The notes beneath the pieces are model-generated. The model worked only from the letters and a program-made list of their open reading frames with translations. It searched no databases and was not told where the DNA came from. DNA of 20,000 bases, taken from an uncultured virus (IMG/VR IMGVR_UViG_3300048905_000045). Taxonomy: Duplodnaviria; Heunggongvirae; Uroviricota; Caudoviricetes. Shown piece by piece: positions 2,367 to 15,914 of this stretch. The position numbers and the translations under genes are program-made. The stretch's first letter is position 1. Every line of letters starts with the position of its first letter. Location: the IMG/VR virus record IMGVR_UViG_3300048905_000045; one strand, written 5' to 3'.

Positions 2367-4037
2367 ATGGCTAAGTTCAAAGCCCCCACAGATGTAAAGG
2401 CCCTCGATAACGACGAGCTGGCCGCCGCAGTCGAGGAAGCACTCGCCGAATTCGGCCAGTACGCCGAAATCCCCGACGCCGAGGTCACCGACGAGCAGTT
2501 CGCTGACATGCAGGAACTCCGCGGCTTCGCCAAGGTAGCCCGCGAGGAACTGTCCACCCGCGAAACGGCCGCCGCCGCGCGCGCCGACGAACTCGCCGCC
2601 ATCCGTCAGGAAATGGCCGCAGGCGACGAGGACGAGGACAGCTCCGAGGCAGAGGCAGAAGCCGCCGCCGCCGAGGCCGCCGCCGACGAAGCCATCAAGG
2701 CAGAGGCCGCCGCGAAGGTGGAAGCCTCCGCTAAGCGCACCGGCTTCGCCTCCAAGGCCGCGTCCAAGTCCGTCGCCCCCAAGCCCACCGCGGCCAAGGG
2801 CGGCACGCTGGTCGCCGCCGCCGAGGTCCCCGGCTTCGCCGCCGGACACAAGTTCAGCAACTTCGCTGACGCGTCCAGCGCCATCCTCAACCGGCTCCAG
2901 TCGATGCCGACGAACATTCCGAACCACCAGTCCCGCGCTGGCATTCTGAATGTCAACGTCGCCGAGACGCGCTTCACCCAGTCCAATCAGGAATTCCAGA
3001 ACCGCGACCTCGAACTGCTCCTCGCGGCAGGTCAGGAGAAGTCCCTGAAGGGCGGCTCCCTCGTGGCCGCCGGTGGCTGGGGTGCGCCGTCCGAGCGGAC
3101 GCTGGACTTCTGCGAACTGGAAAACGTCGACTCCCTGATCCAGCTCCCCGAGGTGACCATCACCCGCGGCGGTGTCCAGTACACCAAGGGCCCGACCCTC
3201 GCCGACGTGCTGAACTCCTCGACCGGTTTTTGGGACATGGACGAAGCAACGGCTGAAGCCGGTGTGGAACAGAAGACGTTCCTGCGTCCGACCGTTCCGG
3301 GCTTCACCGAGAAGCGCCTGAGCGCCGTGGGTATCGGCCTCGAAGCCGGTCTGCTCCTGCGTCAGGGCTGGCCCGAGGTCATCGACCGCCACGCCAAGCT
3401 CCTGACCATCGCGCACCAGATCAAGATGGCCCGCAAGTCCATCTCCCTGATCGAGGGCTTCACCGGCAACGCGAAGGCCATCACCAACGCCTTCGGCAAC
3501 GCGTTCGACATCTTCCACATCCTCGAACTGCTGGCCGTCGGCGAGCGCCAGCGCCTGTCGATGTCTGTGAACCAGACCCTCGAAGCGCTGATCCCGAACT
3601 GGGTCAAGGCCGTCGTCCGCGCCGACCTCGCCCAGCGTCAGGGCGTCGACACCCCCAAGGTGACCGACGCCGAGATTGATTCCTACCTGACGGCCCGCGG
3701 CATCAAGGCGCAGTGGATCACCCAGTATCAGGACATCCCGCTGGACCCGACCACGGGCCTCGCGCTGACCTACCCGGACACGGTCGAAGTTATCTTCTAC
3801 CCGGCCGGTTCCTTCGTCCGCGGTGTCGCGCCGGTCATCCAGCTCGACACCATCTACGACTCCACGAACCTGAAGAAGAACGACTACCTTCACCTGTTCA
3901 TGGAGCAGGGCGTGCTGATGACCAACCCGTGCGGCGACGGACACCGCGTGTCCTTCCCGCTGTACGCCAACGGCCGCCGCGCCAACGTCTCCGGCACCGA
4001 CGGTAACGACAACCTGTTCAACGCTCCCGTCGCGTAG
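2367..4037 (+). CDS. Major capsid protein (hexamer-type) with N-terminal acidic/coiled-coil scaffold-like region
   Basis: 556 aa, strong SD and highly biased codons. Ala/Glu-rich N-terminal ~150 aa. LVAAGGWGAPSE...YTKGP and LDTIYDSTNLKKNDY motifs are typical of large capsid proteins of Rosebush/cluster-B-like actinophages. Follows the protease gene. Confidence 0.88.
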   Translation: MAKFKAPTDVKALDNDELAAAVEEALAEFGQYAEIPDAEVTDEQFADMQELRGFAKVAREELSTRETAAAARADELAAIRQEMAAGDEDEDSSEAEAEAAAAEAAADEAIKAEAAAKVEASAKRTGFASKAASKSVAPKPTAAKGGTLVAAAEVPGFAAGHKFSNFADASSAILNRLQSMPTNIPNHQSRAGILNVNVAETRFTQSNQEFQNRDLELLLAAGQEKSLKGGSLVAAGGWGAPSERTLDFCELENVDSLIQLPEVTITRGGVQYTKGPTLADVLNSSTGFWDMDEATAEAGVEQKTFLRPTVPGFTEKRLSAVGIGLEAGLLLRQGWPEVIDRHAKLLTIAHQIKMARKSISLIEGFTGNAKAITNAFGNAFDIFHILELLAVGERQRLSMSVNQTLEALIPNWVKAVVRADLAQRQGVDTPKVTDAEIDSYLTARGIKAQWITQYQDIPLDPTTGLALTYPDTVEVIFYPAGSFVRGVAPVIQLDTIYDSTNLKKNDYLHLFMEQGVLMTNPCGDGHRVSFPLYANGRRANVSGTDGNDNLFNAPVA

Positions 4038-4043
4038 TGAATG

Positions 4044-4108: not shown

Positions 4109-4864
4109 ATGACGAAGTTCCTGATTGATCCCCCCGCCGTCGCACCCGCGACCGGCGGCCTGCTGGACCTTGCCAACGTCATCACCGCTGATGCCGACTC
4201 GCTCGCGTATCACGGACTGACGCACCGCAGGGTTCTCGGCGGCCACAACCGCGTCGTCCCCGCACCCGGGCAGGACAAGGTCTTCGACCAGAACGCAGGC
4301 TACGGCGACAGTGTCGAGTTCCAGACCTACCGCGGCATCGAGGACGCCCTGCTGTTGGGCGAAGACCCTGCCGCGCTGGCCCGTGACGCATTCAGCGCCA
4401 ACGAAAGCTTCGGCGTCGAGGCCGCAGTGCAGGAGCACCTGCTGAACCCGGAGGCTGTGGACCTCACCCCGACCCCGGGAACCGGTGTCACCAGCGCGAA
4501 GGTCGCTCTCGGCCTGCTGGAGCAGTGGCTGTCGGAGAACTACTCGGGCAAGGGCCTGATCCACACCAACAAGCTCGGCGTTGAACTGCTCTTTGACCGC
4601 ATCGCCGGTACTGACCCGCTTGTCACCGTCAACGGCACCCCCGTTGTCAGCGGCGCCGGGTACACCGCTGACGGCCCGGACAGCCTCACCGCCGGACCGA
4701 ACGAGGTCTGGGTCTACATCTCGGGCCAGATCAACCTCTGGCAGGGGGCGCTGACCATGCAGGGCGCACCGCTCGCGAAAGCGAACCGCACCTTCGGCCT
4801 CGCCGAGCGTGCCTACGCCGCCACCAACTCAGGCCCTGTGGCCGCCATCCTCATCGGATTCTAA
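4109..4864 (+). CDS. Probable second capsid protein (pentamer-type / minor capsid)
   Basis: 251 aa, SD AAAGGAGG. PPAVAPATGGLL start, ALGLLEQWL...Y.GKGLIH, T..GTPVVSGAGY, N.TFGLAERAY motifs. Position directly after the large capsid gene matches two-capsid-protein actinophages. Confidence 0.7.
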   Translation: MTKFLIDPPAVAPATGGLLDLANVITADADSLAYHGLTHRRVLGGHNRVVPAPGQDKVFDQNAGYGDSVEFQTYRGIEDALLLGEDPAALARDAFSANESFGVEAAVQEHLLNPEAVDLTPTPGTGVTSAKVALGLLEQWLSENYSGKGLIHTNKLGVELLFDRIAGTDPLVTVNGTPVVSGAGYTADGPDSLTAGPNEVWVYISGQINLWQGALTMQGAPLAKANRTFGLAERAYAATNSGPVAAILIGF

Positions 4865-4874
4865 GGAGAACCCC

Positions 4875-5273
4875 ATGTCGCTTGATCTGAACACCCTGAA
4901 GGACGACGAAACCTACGTTGACGGCCGCTCCCCCGAGCAGGCCGCCGACCTTCTGGAGCGCGCCGCCGCCGCCGGTCTGTCCGGCCGCGTCTTCACCACG
5001 TCCCACGGCTACATCGTCCCCACCTCCATCCTCGACGCCAAGGAAGAAGCCGACGCTGACGCTGACGCCGACGCCGACGCCGACGCTGATGCTGACGCTG
5101 ATGCCGGGGAAGAAGCAGTAGCAGAGTTTGACCCGTCCAAGGCGACGGTCGAGGAAGTCAACGACTACCTCGCCAACGTCGACGACGCCGAGCGGGAGCG
5201 CGTGCTTGCCGCCGAAGCACAGGGCAAGGACCGCAAGGCCCTGCGTCCCGCCACCCCCGAGGGAGATAAGTAA
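4875..5273 (+). CDS. Acidic 132-aa head-region hypothetical protein with (AD)9 linker and C-terminal small helical domain
   Basis: SD AAGGAG at 4863-4868 favours ATG 4875 over the ORF-track start 4809. Its TAATG overlap couples it to the next gene. C-terminal FDPSKATVEEVNDYL...ERERVLAAEAQGKDRK. Confidence 0.8.
   Translation: MSLDLNTLKDDETYVDGRSPEQAADLLERAAAAGLSGRVFTTSHGYIVPTSILDAKEEADADADADADADADADADAGEEAVAEFDPSKATVEEVNDYLANVDDAERERVLAAEAQGKDRKALRPATPEGDK
5049..5105 (+). repeat. Hexanucleotide tandem repeat GCYGAY x9 (encodes Ala-Asp x9)
   Basis: GCCGAC GCTGAC GCTGAC GCCGAC GCCGAC GCCGAC GCTGAT GCTGAC GCTGAT GCC, read directly. Confidence 0.95.
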
Positions 5274-6166
5274 TGTCGCAGTCCAAGAAGGTTTCCTTCC
5301 TCCGCGGTAAGCGGATCAGGGCAACCGCCGTCAGCACCGCCGGTGTGCCGCTCTACGGAGCGTCCTCGGTCGTCACCACCAAGGGTGTCGTAACGCTGTC
5401 CTACACCACGAATGTTGAGGATGGTTCCGCGATCAGCCTGCCGAACTTCGGCGGCGAAAACTGCATCAACGAAACCGCCACCTCCAACTTCACCGGCTAC
5501 AGCGTCGAAGCAGAGTTCTGCGACGTCGACTTCTCCCTGCTCAGCCTTGTTACCGGCCAGCAGGTCTACGTCGACGACAACGGCCTCGTCATCGGCATCA
5601 CCGAGTCCACCGACGTGAACCTCGCGGCGGTCAACTTCGCGCTGGAGGTGTGGCTGGGCTCGAACATCCCCGGTGATTACGGCTACGTCCTCACCCCGTT
5701 CCTGACCGGCGGCACCATCGGCGACATCACCGTCGCCAACGATGCGATCACCTTCACGGTGACTGGCCTCCAGACCAAGAACGGCAACGGCTGGGGCAAG
5801 GGCCCCTACAAGGTCGAGAAGGTCCTCGGCGTCGATTCCGTCCTGCGCACCGCGATGCTGGCGAACGACCACCGCCGCACCTTCACCACGCAGGTCGCTC
5901 CCCCGGCGGTCTACGCGGGCTCCACTCCGCTCCTGAACCCGACCGATCCGGCCCTGACTGACATCACCGCCACGGTGGCCGTCAAGCAGGTCACGTTCGC
6001 CCCGACACCCTCGGGCACCACGCCGATCTGGTACGACTTCGGCGACGGCACGTGGGATTACGCGGCAACCGGCGGCTACGTCAAGACGTACGCCACGGCT
6101 GGCACGTGGACCGTCACTGCACGGCGCGGCACGTCCGTCGTCACTAAGTCCGTTACCACGACTTAG
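5273..6166 (+). CDS. Major tail (tube) protein with C-terminal PKD/Ig-like domain
   Basis: 297 aa. LRGKRIRAT...G, N.GGENCI, FCDVD..L..LVTG, FALEVW, W.KGPY.V motifs of cluster-B-like tail tube proteins. C-terminal WYDFGDG...TYATAGTWTVT is PKD-like. Followed by a strong hairpin. Confidence 0.85.
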   Translation: MSQSKKVSFLRGKRIRATAVSTAGVPLYGASSVVTTKGVVTLSYTTNVEDGSAISLPNFGGENCINETATSNFTGYSVEAEFCDVDFSLLSLVTGQQVYVDDNGLVIGITESTDVNLAAVNFALEVWLGSNIPGDYGYVLTPFLTGGTIGDITVANDAITFTVTGLQTKNGNGWGKGPYKVEKVLGVDSVLRTAMLANDHRRTFTTQVAPPAVYAGSTPLLNPTDPALTDITATVAVKQVTFAPTPSGTTPIWYDFGDGTWDYAATGGYVKTYATAGTWTVTARRGTSVVTKSVTTT

Positions 6167-6226
6167 ACGCAGGGCGCGGACTACGGAACAGGGGACTTCG
6201 GTAGCGGAGCCTTCGGCGGCGTATAG
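6167..6226 (+). other. Putative amber read-through extension of the major tail protein (TQGADYGTGDFGSGAFGGV*)
   Basis: 19 in-frame sense codons lie between TAG 6164-6166 and TAG 6224-6226. They encode three [YF]G-x-G-x type repeats. The terminator lies after the second TAG. Confidence 0.55.
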
Positions 6227-6239
6227 CGCCTGAGTCACC

Positions 6240-6280
6240 GGGGCCGGGGAAGTGGAGGTAGCGACCACTTCCCCGGCCTT
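6240..6280 (+). terminator. Intrinsic terminator-like hairpin after the major tail gene
   Basis: Perfect 14-bp stem GGCCGGGGAAGTGG (6242-6255) / CCACTTCCCCGGCC (6265-6278) with a 9-nt loop, followed by TT and a pyrimidine-rich tail. Confidence 0.8.
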
Positions 6281-6320
6281 CCATCCATCCATTTGCAGCA
6301 CACCATCTGAAAGGCCCGTC

Positions 6321-6539
6321 ATGGCAACACCTTTTCCCACAGTCCCGGCAGGGGATGTGTGGGGCCAGAAACTCCTCGACGCAATCACTTCCCGGGACAC
6401 TGACGCTGTGGCCGCCGCTGGCACCGCCGCTGACGCCAAGATCGCCGCCAAGGTCGGCGCCTCCACGCTGATCCTCGGCCCGCAGGACCCCGTGCCGGCC
6501 AACACCCCGGCCGGAACCGTCATCTTCAGGACCACCTAA
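6321..6539 (+). CDS. 72-aa putative virion adaptor / mini-fibre protein
   Basis: SD GAAAGG (6309-6314) and ATG 6321; the ORF-track start 6252 lies inside the terminator. N-terminal P..GDVWGQKL motif, Ala-rich helix, C-terminal LILGPQDPVPANTPAGTVIFRT. Confidence 0.75.
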   Translation: MATPFPTVPAGDVWGQKLLDAITSRDTDAVAAAGTAADAKIAAKVGASTLILGPQDPVPANTPAGTVIFRTT

Positions 6540-6540
6540 G

Positions 6541-8055
6541 ATGGCCGTCTCCCTCGTCGGCTACACGTCGGCGGAATTCCAGACCGGCGTGTTCAACTAC
6601 ACCCTCACCCCGGACGGCACCATCGCCACCGGGGACTGGCTCGTCGCTGTCGCCGTCACGGGGCAGGGGCAGGTCCTCGCGGTCCCGACGGGGTGGACGG
6701 CCCTCTACAACATGAAGGGCACCGGCACGCTGAACACTGCCGTGTTCACGAAGAAGCGCCTTGCCGGGGACACCGGCTACACCTTCACCTTCGGCGGCGC
6801 CACCACGTCCGCGAAGATCGCGATGATGTGGGTGCGCGGCGCGGCCGACACCGGCTGGGTGATCCCCACGGACGGCCGCTACCGGGCCAACTCCGGCGGC
6901 ACCTTCAACAACATCGCCGACCCGATCACCGTCGCGGCCAACACGCTCGCGCTGGTCATCTCCACCGAGCGCACTTCCGCCACCGAATCGAACATCTCCT
7001 CGATGACCGGGGCGACGCCGTGGTTCTTCGTGCCGCAAAACGGCGCCACCCAAATCGAAACCATCGCGGTCGGCTCCGTGCTGTCCTCCGGCGGCGGGGC
7101 CACCCCGTCCGTCACCATCACCTACCCGAACACGCAGGCCGCGAACGGCTGGGCCGTCCAGCTCGGCATCCCTGTCGCGGCCGCCGCTCCCGCCAGCGGG
7201 CTTTCGCGCTGGGTCGGCGGCGTCGAGGTCCCCGTGACGGTGAAGCTGTGGAACGGCACCGCCGAGGTCGCGCTCACCCAGTCCCAGCCCGCCGTCGGCA
7301 ACTATCGGATCGCGGACCTGCTGGCGACGTCCCCGTTCTACATCGCGCACCGCGGCTCCATGGACAACTGGCCCGAGCACACCATGCGGGCGTTCAAGAA
7401 CTCGGTCAACTACGGCATGAAGGCGCTGGAGGTGTCGGTCAACGTCACCACCGACAGCGTCATCTTCTGCCACCACGACACCAACCTGTCGCGGATGACC
7501 GGGACGAACCTGAACTTCTCCGCCGCGACTGCCGCGCAGGTGGACGCGCTGACCACGACGGGCGGGCTGACGGACAACCCGACGCAGGACCGCCAGCCGG
7601 TCGCCCGGCTCACCGACGTGCTCGCGGCGTACGCCTCCAACCATGTGCTGTTCATCGAGCCGAAGTCCGGCGGCGCGTGGCAGGCGGACCTGATCGCGCT
7701 GATTAAGACGTACCCGGACATCACCAACCGGATCGTCTGGAAGGCGCCGATTGTCTCCGGCTTCTCCGGCGCCAAGACCGCGGGCTTCACCACATGGGGC
7801 TACCTGCTTCAGGACGACCCGGCGCACGCGGACTGGCAGACCCTCGTGGCGAAGTCGGACGTGGACTGGATCGGCGTGAACCACACCGCGACCGACGCCT
7901 ACATTCAGGGCGTCGTGGCGCTGGCGAACAGCCTCGGCAAGAAGGTCATCATGTGGGAAATCCACACCGCCGCGATGCGCGACCGGGCGCTGTCCCTCGG
8001 CGTCACGGGAATGATGACCTCCAATGTCCGCACCGTCCTGCCCAAGTACCCCTAG
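6541..8055 (+). CDS. Virion-associated glycerophosphodiester phosphodiesterase (GDPD) fusion protein with beta-rich N-terminal domain
   Basis: 504 aa. The C-terminal half has IAHRG...PEHT...ALEVSV...D...CHHD..L.R, FIEPK, VIMWEI and GVTGMMTS, a GDPD TIM-barrel pattern. The N-terminal ~220 aa are Thr/Gly-rich and beta-like. Starts 1 nt after the upstream stop. Confidence 0.85.
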   Translation: MAVSLVGYTSAEFQTGVFNYTLTPDGTIATGDWLVAVAVTGQGQVLAVPTGWTALYNMKGTGTLNTAVFTKKRLAGDTGYTFTFGGATTSAKIAMMWVRGAADTGWVIPTDGRYRANSGGTFNNIADPITVAANTLALVISTERTSATESNISSMTGATPWFFVPQNGATQIETIAVGSVLSSGGGATPSVTITYPNTQAANGWAVQLGIPVAAAAPASGLSRWVGGVEVPVTVKLWNGTAEVALTQSQPAVGNYRIADLLATSPFYIAHRGSMDNWPEHTMRAFKNSVNYGMKALEVSVNVTTDSVIFCHHDTNLSRMTGTNLNFSAATAAQVDALTTTGGLTDNPTQDRQPVARLTDVLAAYASNHVLFIEPKSGGAWQADLIALIKTYPDITNRIVWKAPIVSGFSGAKTAGFTTWGYLLQDDPAHADWQTLVAKSDVDWIGVNHTATDAYIQGVVALANSLGKKVIMWEIHTAAMRDRALSLGVTGMMTSNVRTVLPKYP

Positions 8056-8063
8056 GAGACACC

Positions 8064-8822
8064 TTGTTTACCCAGCTCATCACCCCCAACCCGTACGGGC
8101 CCAAGGCCGAGGAGGGCCTGTGCCTTCAGTACGTGCGCCAAGCCTTCGGGCTTCCGGCACGGTTCGGGTCCGCGACCGAGGCGTGGAACAACTCGCGCTC
8201 CCAGCACCGGGACCGGAACTACCCCAAGGGTGTCTGGTTCGCGGTGTGGTGGAAGCTCGCGGGCAACCCGTACGGCCACGTCGCCGCGGTGGCCCCGGAC
8301 GGCCGGGTGTTCTCCACTTCCAACCTCAACCCCAACCCGCTGAAGGTCCACCCGAACGTCGCCGACGTCGAAGCCTACTACGCCCGGTACGGGCACCCGC
8401 TGACGTACCTCGGCTGGACCGAAGATGTGGCCGGTTTCCCGGTCATCGCCCCGGGCATTTCCGCTCAGGGCTCCACCACCACCACAGGAGACATTTTCAT
8501 GGCACTTTCCGATGCAGAACAGAAGCGCATCCTCGCCGCCGCCGACCGGATCAACGGCCGTGTCGCCGACGTCCGGGTGCTGAACGCCGAGGACGGCGCG
8601 TACATGAACGCGATGCGTGACGCACAGCACGCGAAGGTCATGGCGGCGCTGGACCAGACGCTCGACAAGGAGGACGGCGGCTACATCGTCAACCTCGTCA
8701 ACGCGATCAAGCCCGGCTCCGTGGACCCCAAGGCCATCGCCGACGCCATCGTCGCCCTGATCCCCGTCGGCGTCTCCCCCAAGGCTGTCGCTGACGAACT
8801 CGCCGCACGGCTGAAGGACTAA
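8064..8822 (+). CDS. Endolysin (CHAP/NlpC-P60-like cysteine peptidase domain plus helical C-terminal domain)
   Basis: SD AGGAG (8054-8058) plus TTG 8064 gives 252 aa. GLCLQYVRQAFG...SATEAW...YGHVA gives a Cys/His catalytic pair. YLGWTED ends the domain and is followed by a Thr linker. Confidence 0.75.
   Translation: MFTQLITPNPYGPKAEEGLCLQYVRQAFGLPARFGSATEAWNNSRSQHRDRNYPKGVWFAVWWKLAGNPYGHVAAVAPDGRVFSTSNLNPNPLKVHPNVADVEAYYARYGHPLTYLGWTEDVAGFPVIAPGISAQGSTTTTGDIFMALSDAEQKRILAAADRINGRVADVRVLNAEDGAYMNAMRDAQHAKVMAALDQTLDKEDGGYIVNLVNAIKPGSVDPKAIADAIVALIPVGVSPKAVADELAARLKD
8499..8822 (+). CDS. Putative internally initiated 107-aa C-terminal product of the endolysin gene
   Basis: AGGAGACA at 8486-8493 is identical to the SD context at 8054 and 10623. 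AT-rich spacer, and in-frame ATG 8499 right after the STTTT linker. Confidence 0.65.
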   Translation: MALSDAEQKRILAAADRINGRVADVRVLNAEDGAYMNAMRDAQHAKVMAALDQTLDKEDGGYIVNLVNAIKPGSVDPKAIADAIVALIPVGVSPKAVADELAARLKD

Positions 8823-10634: not shown

Positions 10635-11066
10635 TTGAAAGAATTTGTTACAGCCGTAAAGACCGAGGACGAAGCTGAAGAGGGCATCACCTTCAAGCAC
10701 AACGGCCGCGAGGTGACGTTCTACCGTCCCTCCAAGGGCCAGCAGACGATGATGCTCGCCATGGGCGGGCGTGGCATGAGCGAAGAAGCAATCGGCCACT
10801 TCATCCACCTGTGGATCAACCTCGGCGACGACGACACCCAGCGCTATTTCCAGGACCTGTTGCTCGACCGCAAGAGCGGCTTCGACATCGACAGTGAGGG
10901 TGGCATCTTCGACATCTGGGAGCACCTTACCGAGGAGTGGTCGGGAAAAGATTCCCAGAAGCCGTCCGGCTCGCGTGCGTCGCGGCGGGCAACTGGCGCC
11001 AAATCGACGGGCACTACTCCGGTAAGGGCGTCGACCTCCTCGCGCTCCCGCTCCCTCGATTCCTAA
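10635..11066 (+). CDS. Tail assembly chaperone (G-like)
   Basis: 143 aa, SD AGGAG plus TTG. Directly upstream of the tape measure gene. Contains the slippery heptamer at EEWSGK. Confidence 0.8.
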   Translation: MKEFVTAVKTEDEAEEGITFKHNGREVTFYRPSKGQQTMMLAMGGRGMSEEAIGHFIHLWINLGDDDTQRYFQDLLLDRKSGFDIDSEGGIFDIWEHLTEEWSGKDSQKPSGSRASRRATGAKSTGTTPVRASTSSRSRSLDS

Positions 11067-11203
11067 ACGTCATCTATGACTGGGCAATGAATCACCAGAG
11101 CGAGGAAGACGCCCTCCGATGGTCGGAAACCCTCGCCAGTCCCCTCCCCAGTTCGTCGGACGAAATGGACGGTAACGAAATTGACCAGCTCAGCAAGCTC
11201 TAA
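10635..11203 (+). CDS. Tail assembly chaperone, -1 frameshifted long form (GT-like, ~189 aa)
   Basis: G GGA AAA at 10943-10949 (X XXY YYZ, in phase). The -1 frame stays open to TAA 11203 and encodes ...W..IDG....GVDLLALPLPRFLNVIY.W, a T-like segment. Confidence 0.75.
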
Positions 11204-11228: not shown

Positions 11229-14200
11229 GTGGGTATTGGACGCGAAGTAGCTGACGCGTATATCAGCGTCCACGGTGACCTGTCCCCGTTCCGGCGTTCC
11301 CTGAGCGGAGCCCAGAAGGACATCGAGAAGGCGGCGAAGAACAACGCTGACACCTACGCGGAAGCGTGGGGCAAGCGACTCGAAAAGCAGACCGGTGACC
11401 GGTGGAACTCCATCGTCGACGCGATGTACTCGCAGGAAAAGCTCGACATCAACAAGATGATCGAGCACTTCGATCCGACCGACCTCGACAACGCGCAGAC
11501 GAAGATCAACAAGTTCCTGCTGGACATGTCACGGAACCAGCACCTCACCGGCGATTACTACAAAGATGTCAAGCGGGACATCAACGCCGCCATCGAGGGG
11601 ATGCGCGAACGCAACAGGCTCGATGCCGAGAACGAGCAACAACTGCGCGGGCTGAGCATGGCGCTGGAGGCGAACAGCAAGTTCCTTGCGGACGCGAACA
11701 AGGAGAACGAGCGCTGGGCGCGCACCCTCGACGGCATCCGCAAGAACAACGCCATCGGCGACATGGAAGGCGACTTCCGCAAACTGGCCGGGACCATGAA
11801 GTCCGCCGACTTCGCCGACTTCGCGAAGGGCTTCGACACCTTCACGGAACTGCGCAAGCGCGTCTACGACGTCACCGCCGCCATGCAGGAGCAGGGCCGG
11901 ATGTCGGACGAGCAGGCCGCCGTGATGCGCGAGAACGTCAACATGTTCATCCGCGGCGAGCACCAGAAGTCCGACGCGATGCGCGAGACGCTGGCCGAGA
12001 CGAACCGGCTGAAGAAAGCTCAGGACGAGTACAACGGCTCGCTCTCCGGGATGGCCAGGAACTTCCACATCGGGAAGCTGGAGAACGACTTCCGCAACCT
12101 TGCCGCCGCGATGGACTCCAACGACTTCTCCCACTTCGCCCGCGGCGCGGACAACCTCCGGGACATGCGGTTGCAGATCGCGAACACCGCGAACGAGATG
12201 CGCAGGCTCGGCCGGATGACCGATCAGGAATACCTGCTGGTGCTCCAGCGCACCACCGCCCTGACGCACTCCTTCAACGACAACGACGGCGCAATGAAGC
12301 GCTCGATCATCACGGGGGCACGGCTGAGGAAGGTCTTCTCCGGGATGGGCCGTGCACTGCGCGGAACCCGGGAGCACCTTCAGGGCTTCGCCGGGCTGAA
12401 CGTCTTCGGCGACATGATCCGGGAGGGACTGGACTTCATCCACAACCTCGACCGCATCGCGGTGTCGGCGTCCAAGGCATTCCTGAAGGTCGGCGCGCTG
12501 GGCTCGGTTGCCGGGTCCTCCCTCGCGGGCCTGTTCGTCATCGCCACCGACCTCGGCGCCGTCATCGGCGGGCTCGGCGCGGCCCTGCCCGGCTTCCTCG
12601 TCGCCGCGGGCATCTCCGGCGGCGTGCTGTACGCGGCGCTGAAGGACATGAAGACGGTCCTGAAGGACCTGACCCCGCAGTTCAAGAAGCTTCAGGACAC
12701 CATCTCCAGCAAGTTCTGGGCGCAGGCGAAGAAGCCGATCACCGACCTGACCAAGGCGCTGATGCCGCTCCTGACCACGAAGCTCGGCGCGACCGGCACC
12801 GCATGGGGCAAGGTCTTCGGCTCCCTCGCCGATTCCATCAAGGCGATCCCGCAGAAGCGCATCGCGGGAATGTTCGACCGGATGAATAAGGGCATCGACA
12901 TTGCCGCCGGGGCCATGCCGCCGCTGATCCGCGCGTTCACCAACCTCGGCGACGCCGCGTCCCGGCAGTTCGAGCGCTTCGGCACGTGGATCAAGAAGAT
13001 TTCCACCGACTTCGACAAGTTCATCCAGAAGGCGTCCGACAACGGCGACCTCGACAAGTGGATCAACAACATGGTCGACGGCTTCAAGAACCTCGGCCGC
13101 GCCGCCGACGGCACCTTCGGAATCATCAACGCCATCTCCGACGCCGCGAAGCGGGCCGGGTCCGGCGGGCTGAAGGAATTCGCCGACAAGCTTCAGGGCA
13201 TCGCGAAGGCCATGCAGGAGCGCGGCTTCCAAGACACCCTCACCACGTTCATCTCGGGCATGAACATCGCCGTCGGCAAGATGGGCGAGGCCATCAAGGG
13301 CCTCGGCCCGGCACTCCAGTCCGTCATGCCCTCCATCAAGATCGCCCTGTCCGACGTCGGAGACTCGGTCGCCACGATCATCGGCTACCTCGGCCAGATT
13401 CTTTCCAACCCCACCGTGCAGAAGGGCATCACGGACTTCAGCAATGGGGTCAAGACGGCGCTGGGCCTGCTCGCCCCCGCCGTGAAGCCGTTCGCCGATT
13501 CGCTCGGCAACGCCATGTCCCTGCTGGGCAAGGTCGTGGAGTCCGTTGCGAAGATCGCCACCGCGTTCACCGTCAACCTCGCCCCCGTCCTCGACCAGAT
13601 GTCGATTAAAGTCCAGACCCTGCTGGACCCGCTCTCGAACATGGCCACCAACGCCATCGAAAAGCTGAAGCCTGTCGCGGACGCGCTGGACAAGTTCATC
13701 GTCGGACCCATCGTCGCGGCGATGAACTCCTCCCTGATCCCGTCGTTCAACGGCTTCGTGGACAAGGCCAGCCCGGTACTGGCCAAGATCGTCGAAGACC
13801 TCGGCCCCGTGCTGAAAAGTCTGGTCAACGACGTACTGCCGAACGCGGTGAAGTTCGCCACCGAACTGCTGGACCCGCTGGGGAAGGTCTTCGACCTGTT
13901 CACCCCGGCGCTCAAAAAGCAGATCGACGACGTCGCGGGCGGCTTCAGTTCGCTCTCCGCCGCCATGCGGATCGCGAAGGGCGAGGCGCGCACCGAGGAC
14001 TGGGGCACCCTGTTCGGCGCGTTCTCCATGGACGGCTTCAACAAGGCGCAGAAAGCCTACGAGGAGCAAATCAAGAACGCGCCCAAGACGGACTGGGGCG
14101 ACATCTTCGGCGAACTGCTCGGCGGCAACGCGCAGAACGGCATGGCAATCGCGTGGAACGAGAAAATCTACCCGGAGCTGGTCAAGGCCGGGCAGTGGCT

Positions 14201-15914
14201 GGACGAGCACGTCAATGACGGGCTGGACCGGATCTTCGGCAACGGCCAGTTCTGGAAGGACGCCGCCTCCAACAACATCGACCTGTCCAAGGGCCTGACG
14301 GACTGGCTCAAAGGCCAGTTCGACGAAATCGGCAGGGCCAACGAAGAACTCAGCGGCACGATCACCACCGCCCTCAACGACTGGTGGGGCGGCATCAAGG
14401 GCATGGCGCAGGACTGGTTCAAGAGCACCTTCGGGTTCGGCAACGACAGCTCCAAGCCTGCCGGTGGAAGCATCAGCGGCGGCGGCGGTGCGGGCGGCAA
14501 GGGCATGGGCGTGATGGGCAAGATTACCGAGGAGATGCTCGGCAACACCGGCGACCCCGCAACGGTCGTCACCGAACCGTTCGCCGGAATCAGTCAGGCG
14601 ATCAACGACAGCCTCGCCCAGATCAACGGCGTCGTCGGCGGACTCACCGGCGCGCTCGGCGAAATCTGGAACGGATTCTGGGGCGGCTTCGGCACCGTCG
14701 TCTCCGACGTGTGGACGAACATCACCACGTGGATCGGAACCTTCGCGGGGCAGATCGGCGCGAACATCGCCAGCTTCATCGGCACCGTCTCGACTACTTG
14801 GAATAGCTTCTGGGCCGGAGTCGGCCAGACCGTCTCCAGCATCTGGACACAGATCACCACGTGGATCAGCACCACCGTTGGGCAAATCGCAGGCAACATC
14901 GGTTCCTTCATCGGCACAGTGACCGCCAACTGGAATGCGTTCTGGGCCGGAGTCGGGCAAACAGTGTCGGCTATCTGGGCCCAGATCACCGGCTGGATCG
15001 GCCAGCAGATCGGCGCCATTGCGGGGAACATCGGCAACTTCATCGGCACCGTCACCTCGAACTGGAACAACTTCTGGTCCGGGGTTGGCGCCAAGGTGTC
15101 CCAGACGTGGGCGCAGATCACCGGCTGGATCAACCAGCAGGTCGGTGCAATCATCGGCCGGATCGCCGGGTTCATCGGACAGGTCACGGGAAGCTGGAAC
15201 GCCTTCTGGGGCGGGGTCAGTGCGCGCGCCTCACAGGCGTGGGCGCAGATCAGCGGCGCTGTCTCCAACGGCGTCTCCAGCGTCATCGGCTGGGTCGCCG
15301 GACTGCCGGGCCGGATCAGCGGCGCCATCGGCAACGCGTGGGGCATCCTTCAGGGTGCCGGTGAGGCGATCATGGGCGGCCTGCGCCGCGGCCTCGAATC
15401 GGCGTGGTCCGGCGTGCAGAACTTCGTCGGGACCATCGCGCAGTGGATCGCGGACCACAAGGGCCCGATCAGCTACGACCGGACCCTGCTCGTGCCCGCC
15501 GGTGAGGCGATCATGTCCGGCCTCGAAACGTCCATGAAGGACAAGTTCGGCAACGTCATGGACTTCGTCTCCTCAATGGCGTCGATGATGGCGTCGGCGT
15601 TCAACCACTCGGACATGTATATCGCCGGGAAGAACGCCTCGCAGGGGTTGGCCGACGGCCTGCTCGCGAACAAGTCCACCATCGCGGCGGCCTACTCCAA
15701 TCTCGGCACGTTCGCCACCGGCGACCCGGCGGGCCTCGGCACGCTGAAGATCGCCCGGGGTGACGACCGGTCGTCAGGCACGACGGCGTCGCATTCCTTC
15801 GCCCCGGGCGCGGTACAGGTCGCCGTCACCACACAGGCGACGGACGCGGGCCTCGTGGCCAGCAAGGTCACCGATTCACTCGACGACGCGTTCGCGCGCT
15901 TCTCAGGACTGTAG
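11229..15914 (+). CDS. Tape measure protein
   Basis: 1561 aa, SD GAAAGGA plus GTG. Start IG.EVADAYISV is typical. Helical Ala/Gly/Lys-rich body, Trp/Phe 11-residue periodic repeats, C-terminal HKGP.SYD..LL.PAG.AIM.GL motif. Confidence 0.93.
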   Translation: MGIGREVADAYISVHGDLSPFRRSLSGAQKDIEKAAKNNADTYAEAWGKRLEKQTGDRWNSIVDAMYSQEKLDINKMIEHFDPTDLDNAQTKINKFLLDMSRNQHLTGDYYKDVKRDINAAIEGMRERNRLDAENEQQLRGLSMALEANSKFLADANKENERWARTLDGIRKNNAIGDMEGDFRKLAGTMKSADFADFAKGFDTFTELRKRVYDVTAAMQEQGRMSDEQAAVMRENVNMFIRGEHQKSDAMRETLAETNRLKKAQDEYNGSLSGMARNFHIGKLENDFRNLAAAMDSNDFSHFARGADNLRDMRLQIANTANEMRRLGRMTDQEYLLVLQRTTALTHSFNDNDGAMKRSIITGARLRKVFSGMGRALRGTREHLQGFAGLNVFGDMIREGLDFIHNLDRIAVSASKAFLKVGALGSVAGSSLAGLFVIATDLGAVIGGLGAALPGFLVAAGISGGVLYAALKDMKTVLKDLTPQFKKLQDTISSKFWAQAKKPITDLTKALMPLLTTKLGATGTAWGKVFGSLADSIKAIPQKRIAGMFDRMNKGIDIAAGAMPPLIRAFTNLGDAASRQFERFGTWIKKISTDFDKFIQKASDNGDLDKWINNMVDGFKNLGRAADGTFGIINAISDAAKRAGSGGLKEFADKLQGIAKAMQERGFQDTLTTFISGMNIAVGKMGEAIKGLGPALQSVMPSIKIALSDVGDSVATIIGYLGQILSNPTVQKGITDFSNGVKTALGLLAPAVKPFADSLGNAMSLLGKVVESVAKIATAFTVNLAPVLDQMSIKVQTLLDPLSNMATNAIEKLKPVADALDKFIVGPIVAAMNSSLIPSFNGFVDKASPVLAKIVEDLGPVLKSLVNDVLPNAVKFATELLDPLGKVFDLFTPALKKQIDDVAGGFSSLSAAMRIAKGEARTEDWGTLFGAFSMDGFNKAQKAYEEQIKNAPKTDWGDIFGELLGGNAQNGMAIAWNEKIYPELVKAGQWLDEHVNDGLDRIFGNGQFWKDAASNNIDLSKGLTDWLKGQFDEIGRANEELSGTITTALNDWWGGIKGMAQDWFKSTFGFGNDSSKPAGGSISGGGGAGGKGMGVMGKITEEMLGNTGDPATVVTEPFAGISQAINDSLAQINGVVGGLTGALGEIWNGFWGGFGTVVSDVWTNITTWIGTFAGQIGANIASFIGTVSTTWNSFWAGVGQTVSSIWTQITTWISTTVGQIAGNIGSFIGTVTANWNAFWAGVGQTVSAIWAQITGWIGQQIGAIAGNIGNFIGTVTSNWNNFWSGVGAKVSQTWAQITGWINQQVGAIIGRIAGFIGQVTGSWNAFWGGVSARASQAWAQISGAVSNGVSSVIGWVAGLPGRISGAIGNAWGILQGAGEAIMGGLRRGLESAWSGVQNFVGTIAQWIADHKGPISYDRTLLVPAGEAIMSGLETSMKDKFGNVMDFVSSMASMMASAFNHSDMYIAGKNASQGLADGLLANKSTIAAAYSNLGTFATGDPAGLGTLKIARGDDRSSGTTASHSFAPGAVQVAVTTQATDAGLVASKVTDSLDDAFARFSGL
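14667..15330 (+). repeat. Five 132-nt (44-aa, 4x11) repeats in the tape measure gene
   Basis: TTCTGG (Phe-Trp) recurs at 14676, 14808, 14940, 15072 and 15204. The exact 17-mer TTCTGGGCCGGAGTCGG occurs at 14808 and 14940. Confidence 0.9.

Follow-up and report, generated by a model that had tools for sequence, protein, structure and literature searches.

A conserved coding tail behind the amber stop of a siphophage tail tube gene: a proposed read-through tag and its candidate partner

The window analyzed here, 20,000 nucleotides of an uncultured caudovirus (IMG/VR record IMGVR_UViG_3300048905_000045), covers the structural region of a GC-rich soil siphophage related to Arthrobacter cluster AP, and its main features are collected in Table 1. 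The capsid gene closes with a tandem TAG TGA (4035-4040), both stops being present as the initial annotation had them. Between the capsid and tail tube genes lie two genes that match PHROGs of unknown function (4109-4864, PHROG 779; 4875-5273, PHROG 29381), the latter with an (AD)n run at about 5050-5105. Behind the tube gene are a small gene and a gene for a protein with a GDPD phosphodiesterase domain, and an endolysin-like gene (about 8064-8822, probably starting at a TTG near 8064) separates these from the head-tail adaptor gene. Cultured AP phages have their endolysin at the same place. Two overlapping ORFs ahead of the tape-measure gene (10635-11066 and 10937-11203) occupy the usual place of the tail-assembly-chaperone frameshift, and their counterparts in phage BruhMoment are annotated as joined. 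In RNA runs, 5-14% of the window's words were matched.

Table 1. Features of the window discussed in the text, with the evidence for each
Feature	Coordinates	Strand	Evidence
Capsid gene	2367-4037		Gene call, PHROG
Major tail (tube) protein, 297 aa, ends ACT TAG	5273-6166	+	PHROG 792, E 7e-60; 69% to AWGoat gp22
PKD/Ig-like beta-sandwich, about residues 230-296; the tag would extend from its end	5960-6160	+	Pfam, model
First stop in UAG-A context, proposed leaky stop	6164-6167	+	TAG-A in 6/6 tagged loci
Predicted RNA stem-loop around the extension (6166-6168/6234-6236 and 6172-6177/6226-6231)	6166-6238	+	Folds, RNAalifold
19-codon extension TQGADYGTGDFGSGAFGGV (6167-6223) and second TAG (6224-6226), the ([YF]GxGx)3 tag	6167-6226	+	In-frame translation
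16-bp GC hairpin without U tract	6240-6280	+	Fold; unlisted by terminator scan
72-aa fibre/adaptor-like protein, N-terminal P..G.DVWG helix, C-terminal LGPQDPVPANTPAGTVIF; proposed partner	6321-6539	+	
504-aa protein, C-terminal GDPD phosphodiesterase domain	6541-8055	+	Pfam GDPD, E 4e-21; PHROG phosphodiesterase and tail fibre
Head-tail adaptor gene	8827-9561		Gene call, PHROG
1561-aa ORF	11229-15914		Taken as tape measure from size and place

The product of the tube gene is 69% identical to those of the Arthrobacter phages AWGoat and SilentRX, about 50% identical to those of Tank-like phages and about 42% identical to those of Microbacterium cluster EG. A structural model built from 106 sequences (pLDDT 89.8) has a tail-tube fold followed by a C-terminal beta-sandwich and matches the tubes of Douge, Chi, lambda and YSD1. 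The identity of the gene as that of a siphophage tail tube protein is thus borne out by PHROG, by homologues and by the model. The initial annotation had named the C-terminal part a PKD domain; the model gives a confident beta-sandwich at residues 230-296, while the Pfam match to PKD is weak (E 0.0063) and below the cut-off. From known tail tubes, we presume that this PKD/Ig-like domain faces outward on the tube.

Behind the stop of the tube gene, the same frame continues for 19 codons of a regular Gly-aromatic repeat and is closed by a second TAG, and the frame and coordinates given in the initial annotation were right. The extension is not due to chance: the ([YF]GxGx)3 motif occurs once in the six frames of the window, is absent from 672,802 codons of DNA flanking homologous loci, and did not arise in 100,000 shuffles of the 57 nt. 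Contigs from four runs of four studies cover the TAG with the same letters, which excludes a sequencing error there, and no difference is listed for 5900-6290 where they cover it; one of these contigs extends just 21 nt beyond the stop, and the window itself may derive from one of the runs. The remark that the extension has no Shine-Dalgarno (SD) sequence of its own also holds, as the duplex energy ahead of 6167 is +0.4 kcal/mol versus -3.5 to -13.2 for 10 starts in the window. When modeled with the UAG read as Gln, the 19 residues are unstructured, with no secondary structure and a pLDDT of about 53; no folded Ig or FN3 domain was found in them.

We examined loci L001 to L136, drawn from viral, metagenome, genome and phage collections, and kept those in which the match reaches tube residue 280 and the stop is included. 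Fragments, distant homologues that have no PKD domain, and L001, which is a truncated copy of the window, were dropped; with identical stop regions merged, 76 distinct loci were left. The tag lies in frame 0 behind a TAG in six of the 76 (L075, which is identical to the window, L004, L027, L028, L044 and L096) and in the -1 frame in ten; the other 60 are untagged. Relatives with a sense codon at the stop would have pointed to a recent nonsense mutation in the window, and there are none: no sense codon fuses the tag to the tube in any of the 76 loci, and none of 133 database proteins (the best 120 of 1514 matches plus 13 more) ends in the tag.

The expected conservation of frame and motif, with a synonymous bias, is present in the six in-frame loci. 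Over 15 aligned codons, five Gly columns are invariant at the protein level with 2-4 codons each, and the aromatic columns hold only Tyr or Phe. Pairwise codon differences, which are not independent of one another, split 48:68 (synonymous:non-synonymous) in frame 0 versus 13:105 and 13:82 in the other frames. The tags of the window, L004, L027 and L028 are 91-95% identical in DNA and their tube ends 68-71%, so these four represent one recently spread cassette and count as a single observation. The tags of L044 and L096 are 76% and 64% identical to the window's, which makes three in-frame tag lineages by tag sequence. In five of the six loci, the tag codons are rare, with an adaptation index of 0.33-0.43 versus 0.70 for the tube gene. 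Other frames were considered and rejected. The -1 frame of the window (LDAGRGLRNRGLR) is alike in the four close loci and is lost in L044 and L096, which rejects a -1 shift there; the +1 frame meets a stop in L004. The window has no slippery heptamer, and the conserved reading is frame 0. These comparisons mark the 19 codons as a genuine coding extension of the tube protein, conserved, under coding constraint and missing from annotation.

This tail travels with its neighbors. In a quick tube tree, from which six short rows were left out, the five in-frame tags represented fall in at least four places within the Arthrobacter-type clade. The closest relative, L003 (94% identical tube), has neither tag nor cassette, and its tube gene is followed directly by the endolysin gene; tag, hairpin, small gene and GDPD gene thus act as one cassette, subject to exchange or loss, at the tube gene's end. 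Tag and cassette are absent from the seven cultured Arthrobacter phages compared, and no cultured phage matched the window's cassette. A search with the DNA pattern around the second stop returned 11 stretches, namely seven known contigs and four chance matches. None of 17 GenBank regions of Arthrobacter AP and Microbacterium EG phages has an extended tube product annotated.

The stop itself is set apart from those of untagged relatives. TAG is followed by A in all six in-frame-tagged loci versus one of 30 untagged TAG-ending loci (Fisher p 4e-6; 7e-4 when three lineages are counted), and in none of the 23 untagged TAG-ending loci of the Arthrobacter type. The context of the tagged stops is distinct; UAG-A is leaky in E. 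coli, and its leakiness in Arthrobacter would follow by analogy. All six loci in fact read TAG-A-Y, and the sequence GAGTCAC (6232-6238) is invariant behind the second stop in the in-frame-tagged loci. The G-A-Y at the stop can pair with the GTC of GAGTCAC, and this pairing would explain both the A-Y after TAG and the conserved non-coding letters. The second predicted helix begins about 5 nt past the UAG, near the mRNA entrance of the ribosome. Both basal helices are common to separate folds of all six loci and to RNAalifold, and 91.7% of the stem cells are paired versus 30-47% for slid controls. Covariation is weak and not significant (41 of 500 shuffles reach the score), the stability is at z -0.2 to -2.9 against dinucleotide shuffles, and synonymous recodings fold equally well (z -0.8 to +1.4).

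A 16-bp hairpin does stand behind the second stop, as initially described; with no U tract and no entry in the terminator scan, its label as a terminator is putative only. The six in-frame-tagged loci share its apex GTAGC (6255-6265 in the window) on differing stems, and five EG phages have the same hairpin with the apex G(T/C)AGC. Neither the window nor five further records, including a complete 63-kb tagged genome, contains a tRNA gene, so a phage suppressor (tRNA-CUA) is rejected as an aid to read-through. Genome-wide reassignment of TAG is likewise rejected: table 11 leaves the structural genes open, and TAG is the stop of several of them.

The ten remaining tagged loci carry the tag in the -1 frame (for example, GPGFGYGHGPYGHGPYGH). 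An in-phase heptamer C CCT TTY or R GGC CCY is present in exactly 12 of the 76 loci, that is, in the ten -1-tagged loci, L108 and L124, and so only in loci with an extension; four untagged tubes that end in Pro-Phe have the non-slippery CCG TTC instead. In L108 and L124, the same slippery sites lead into -1 ORFs of about 100 aa that look Ig-like by eye, that of L108 having no PHROG match; these two are probably SPP1-type isoforms within this tube family. Since no canonical start codon opens the -1 tails, fusion to the tube is the simplest reading there, and this group provides the strongest argument for fusion in the window too. In Hyperion (L295) and Squash (L296), Leu replaces the aromatic residues behind C CCT TTC and the last codon is different, which places the slip at the heptamer.

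The tag of Phinky is matched at 96-100% by 16 records of 15 cultured Microbacterium phages, and at least 17 named cultured Microbacterium EG phages have the -1 tag; it is absent from Sunfish, Kithara and FuzzBuster. Annotation of the major tail gene omits the -1 tail behind C CCT TTC in L023 (Phinky), L024 (Marcie), L273, L275, L276, L295 and L296. A decayed -1 tag (SGDSGHGPYGSRP) follows the tube stop of L056, where there is no heptamer and no adaptor gene; it is likely a relic left after loss of the cassette.

The initial annotation had suggested that the extension is a docking peptide, and this idea now gains a candidate partner in the product of the next gene. An adaptor-like gene (P..G/E..DxW and a helix) stands behind the tag in the window and in each of the 15 tagged loci whose next gene is visible; it is absent behind 55 of 56 scorable untagged loci, four more having too little sequence. 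An HMM built from the partners in unrelated phages gave 5.9-31.4 bits for the -1 loci (n = 10), a weak 2.1-15.2 bits for the in-frame loci (n = 5), 23.7 bits for the untagged L097, and at most 3.9 bits for the other 55 scorable untagged loci. Profile comparison of the in-frame group's partners with the unrelated-phage set gave P 75% (E 2.4e-5). The 72-aa protein of the window has no match in Pfam or PHROG; an atlas search returned only hypothetical proteins (0.91-0.92), with a tail-fibre lead below threshold. A predicted complex of the 30-residue -1 tag of L010 with three adaptor N-termini scored 0.03 against a mark of 0.32, and we weigh it neither way. L097 (perhaps also L095) combines an adaptor-like gene with a tube that has no tag, on contigs that end shortly after; the adaptor of L097 may dock on another protein.

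The C-terminal motif of the 72-aa protein also ends collagen-like proteins, and this, together with the GDPD domain encoded next, suggests an appendage acting on cell-wall phosphodiesters. The 504-aa GDPD protein would probably be its distal part. At the same place, six of seven tagged EG phages have a gene annotated as a phosphoesterase or esterase, and Phinky has one annotated as hypothetical. In other phages, LGPQDP.P.NTPAGT ends collagen-like proteins (L290/L291 near 1600-2000, L031-L034), followed in L290/L291 by a homologue with 63% identity to the 6541 protein. The GDPD-type gene there stands behind the collagen-like gene, and the 1.2 kb examined contain neither a tube gene nor the tag.

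Tag and partner also recur away from tube genes. A pattern scan of viral contigs found at least 120 stretches with the motif, of which 80 were listed. Among the listed matches, 63 are distinct and include a stop; the motif closes the protein in 15 of these, three of them -1 tags. A gene with the partner pattern, which was drawn from the tube loci by the analyst, comes next in nine of the other 12 C-terminal cases versus four of the 45 internal ones that have a next gene. The ORFs that end in the tag are ordinary long ORFs of differing kinds, one with a PHROG tail match and the rest assigned by eye, and many of the internal motifs among the listed matches lie within podophage nozzle-like proteins.

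We propose that most ribosomes would stop at the UAG at 6164 and that a small fraction would insert an amino acid there via a near-cognate host tRNA and end at the second UAG. Read-through would be favored by UAG-A, and perhaps also by the stem beginning 5 nt downstream. On the long form, three [YF]GxGx repeats would follow the outer PKD domain and would dock the P..G..DxW-helix N-terminus of the next gene's product. This product is probably a trimeric fibre head, each subunit of which would take up one of the three repeats through one aromatic residue, and it would carry the GDPD enzyme. Leaky recoding would then set the number of appendage-bearing subunits among the few hundred of the tube. 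If, as we assume, a 1561-aa tape measure corresponds to about 340 tube subunits, 1-5% read-through would place about 3-17 tags on each tail. That some recoding event fuses the tag to the tube appears quite probable from the sequence comparisons; UAG read-through with fibre docking is in our judgment the best explanation, and a moderately probable one. What the comparisons show is the constraint on frame 0, the distinct context of the stop, the joint occurrence of tag and partner gene, and a -1 slippery site ahead of the same tag in relatives; we infer the read-through itself, the role of the stem, the binding of tag and partner, the trimer symmetry and the stoichiometry.

Read more widely, ([YF]GxGx)3 and the P..G..DxW helix of trimeric fibres might be a portable tag-and-catcher pair, one that many phages would mount on different virion proteins and whose dose on the tube is set by recoding along either of two interchangeable routes, -1 slippage (Microbacterium-type) or stem-stimulated amber read-through (Arthrobacter-type). 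This generalization is tentative, and we hold it somewhat short of an even chance. Tagging every tube subunit would be excessive, hence the dosing; if true, a dsDNA phage would be using programmed UAG read-through, stimulated by RNA structure, to set how many enzyme-bearing side fibres each tail has.

Among the alternatives to read-through and docking, re-initiation fares best and is still unlikely. The 17-19 codons would be a mini-gene starting at AUG, ACG or AUU past the UAG, and the free peptide would bind or chaperone the fibre trimer or join the tail non-covalently. The first post-stop codon is indeed ATG in L004, L028 and the distant L096, and the ACG of the window and L027 and the ATT of L044 are near-cognate starts one mismatch from AUG. 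However, ACG and AUU are very weak starts, no SD precedes the first post-stop codon in any of the six loci, and tag and cassette are intact even where ACG or AUU follows the stop. Stop-then-ATG spacing of +3 is found at none of 60 next-gene junctions among the listed matches, at which -1 and +2 overlaps dominate; the -1 tags have no canonical start, and elsewhere the motif lies within a larger ORF in nearly every case. The A-Y behind the stop is accounted for by RNA pairing.

Slightly less likely again is that read-through is real and the tag has a different job, such as attachment to the cell surface or to a different virion protein. The adaptor without a tag in L097, the tag remnant without an adaptor in L056, the three of 12 in-frame C-terminal tags (among the listed matches) without a pattern-matching next gene, and the motif inside podophage nozzle-like proteins would all fit this reading. 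Against it, tag and adaptor were gained and lost jointly in two tube clades that use different recoding routes, and they stand side by side behind unrelated virion genes.

Two further readings are very improbable, and about equally so. Fusion might come about without decoding of the UAG, by a peptidyl-tRNA hop or another event that restores frame 0: the window and L027 read ACT TAG ACG, with Thr codons flanking the stop, the stem includes the stop's final base, and a T precedes TAG in five of six loci, but take-off and landing codons do not match in the remaining four loci (GTT/ATG, GCT/ATG, ACG/ATT and GGT/ATG). The tag could also be a silent relic, once fused and then moved with the cassette behind a stop, untranslated and kept as RNA structure or by recent transfer, as the 91-95% identity of four tags, the rare codons and the patchy distribution might suggest; yet three lineages (64-76% DNA identity to the window's tag) keep the frame, TAG-A, the motif, the second TAG and the basal stem, the partner genes are intact, and random landing would not yield frame 0 each time.

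Production of a minor virion protein by leaky stop decoding in a bacterium is known from A1 of phage Qbeta. That case concerns UGA and a long folded coat extension in a ssRNA phage, whereas read-through in the window would concern UAG and a short tag on the tube of a dsDNA phage. Recoded tube isoforms, in the parts of the reports available to us, are frameshifts that add folded domains (PMC6316719, PMC5009743, PMC5221750). SPP1 gp17.1/gp17.1* is like the window in that one tube gene would give two products with a common N-terminus by recoding at the stop; gp17.1* arises by a +1 frameshift at CCC UAA and adds an 87-aa FN3 domain at about 3:1, and the window has an in-frame UAG and a 19-residue unstructured tag (PMC6316719). 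The window thus resembles gp17.1* in function but differs in two features, the frameshift and the folded domain. In Listeria phages PSA, A118 and A500, Lactobacillus phage A2 and T3, frameshifts of either sign display an extra C-terminal part on some subunits, and for display of Ig-like domains the recoding route seems indifferent (PMC5009743). The examples available from that source are all frameshifts with folded domains, unlike the proposed stop read-through into a short peptide linked to a partner gene (PMC5009743). For the docking itself, the DTP of mycobacteriophage Mysterious offers an analogy only: its pseudo-trimeric claw presents three similar elements of one subunit to one trimer of the fibre gp40, but the claw is charged, lies in a folded baseplate domain, and involves neither recoding nor a Gly-aromatic repeat, as described in the part of the report available (PMC13252515). 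Arthrobacter cluster AP and Microbacterium cluster EG share gene order and tube homology with the window, and the main text of the cluster papers, in the portions available, has no mention of recoding in the tube gene (PMC5513430, PMC7302621). A search of main texts that lay outside most subscription journals brought up neither read-through in the tube gene of a phage nor this pairing of tag and partner.

If the proposal of read-through and docking is correct, it would add stop-codon read-through to the ways in which tailed phages make minor tube isoforms and would show two recoding routes to be interchangeable ahead of one peptide. It gives a probable role to an unannotated motif and partner domain that are both widespread in viral contigs, and it predicts that at least 17 cultured Microbacterium phages have a virion protein that has been overlooked. 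The locus would also be a native context in which to gauge UAG leakiness in actinobacteria.

A sequence search of the PDB with the motif and the partner domain gave no match. The motif is common in viral contigs (L152-L231 and L278-L283), both at the C-termini of several tail-region proteins and at N-termini ahead of genes whose products start TT..L.L.KP..G...D.WG. In L279, an ordinary gene starts with nearly the window's motif (YGTGEFGSGAFG), and the next gene encodes a longer version of the partner N-terminus.
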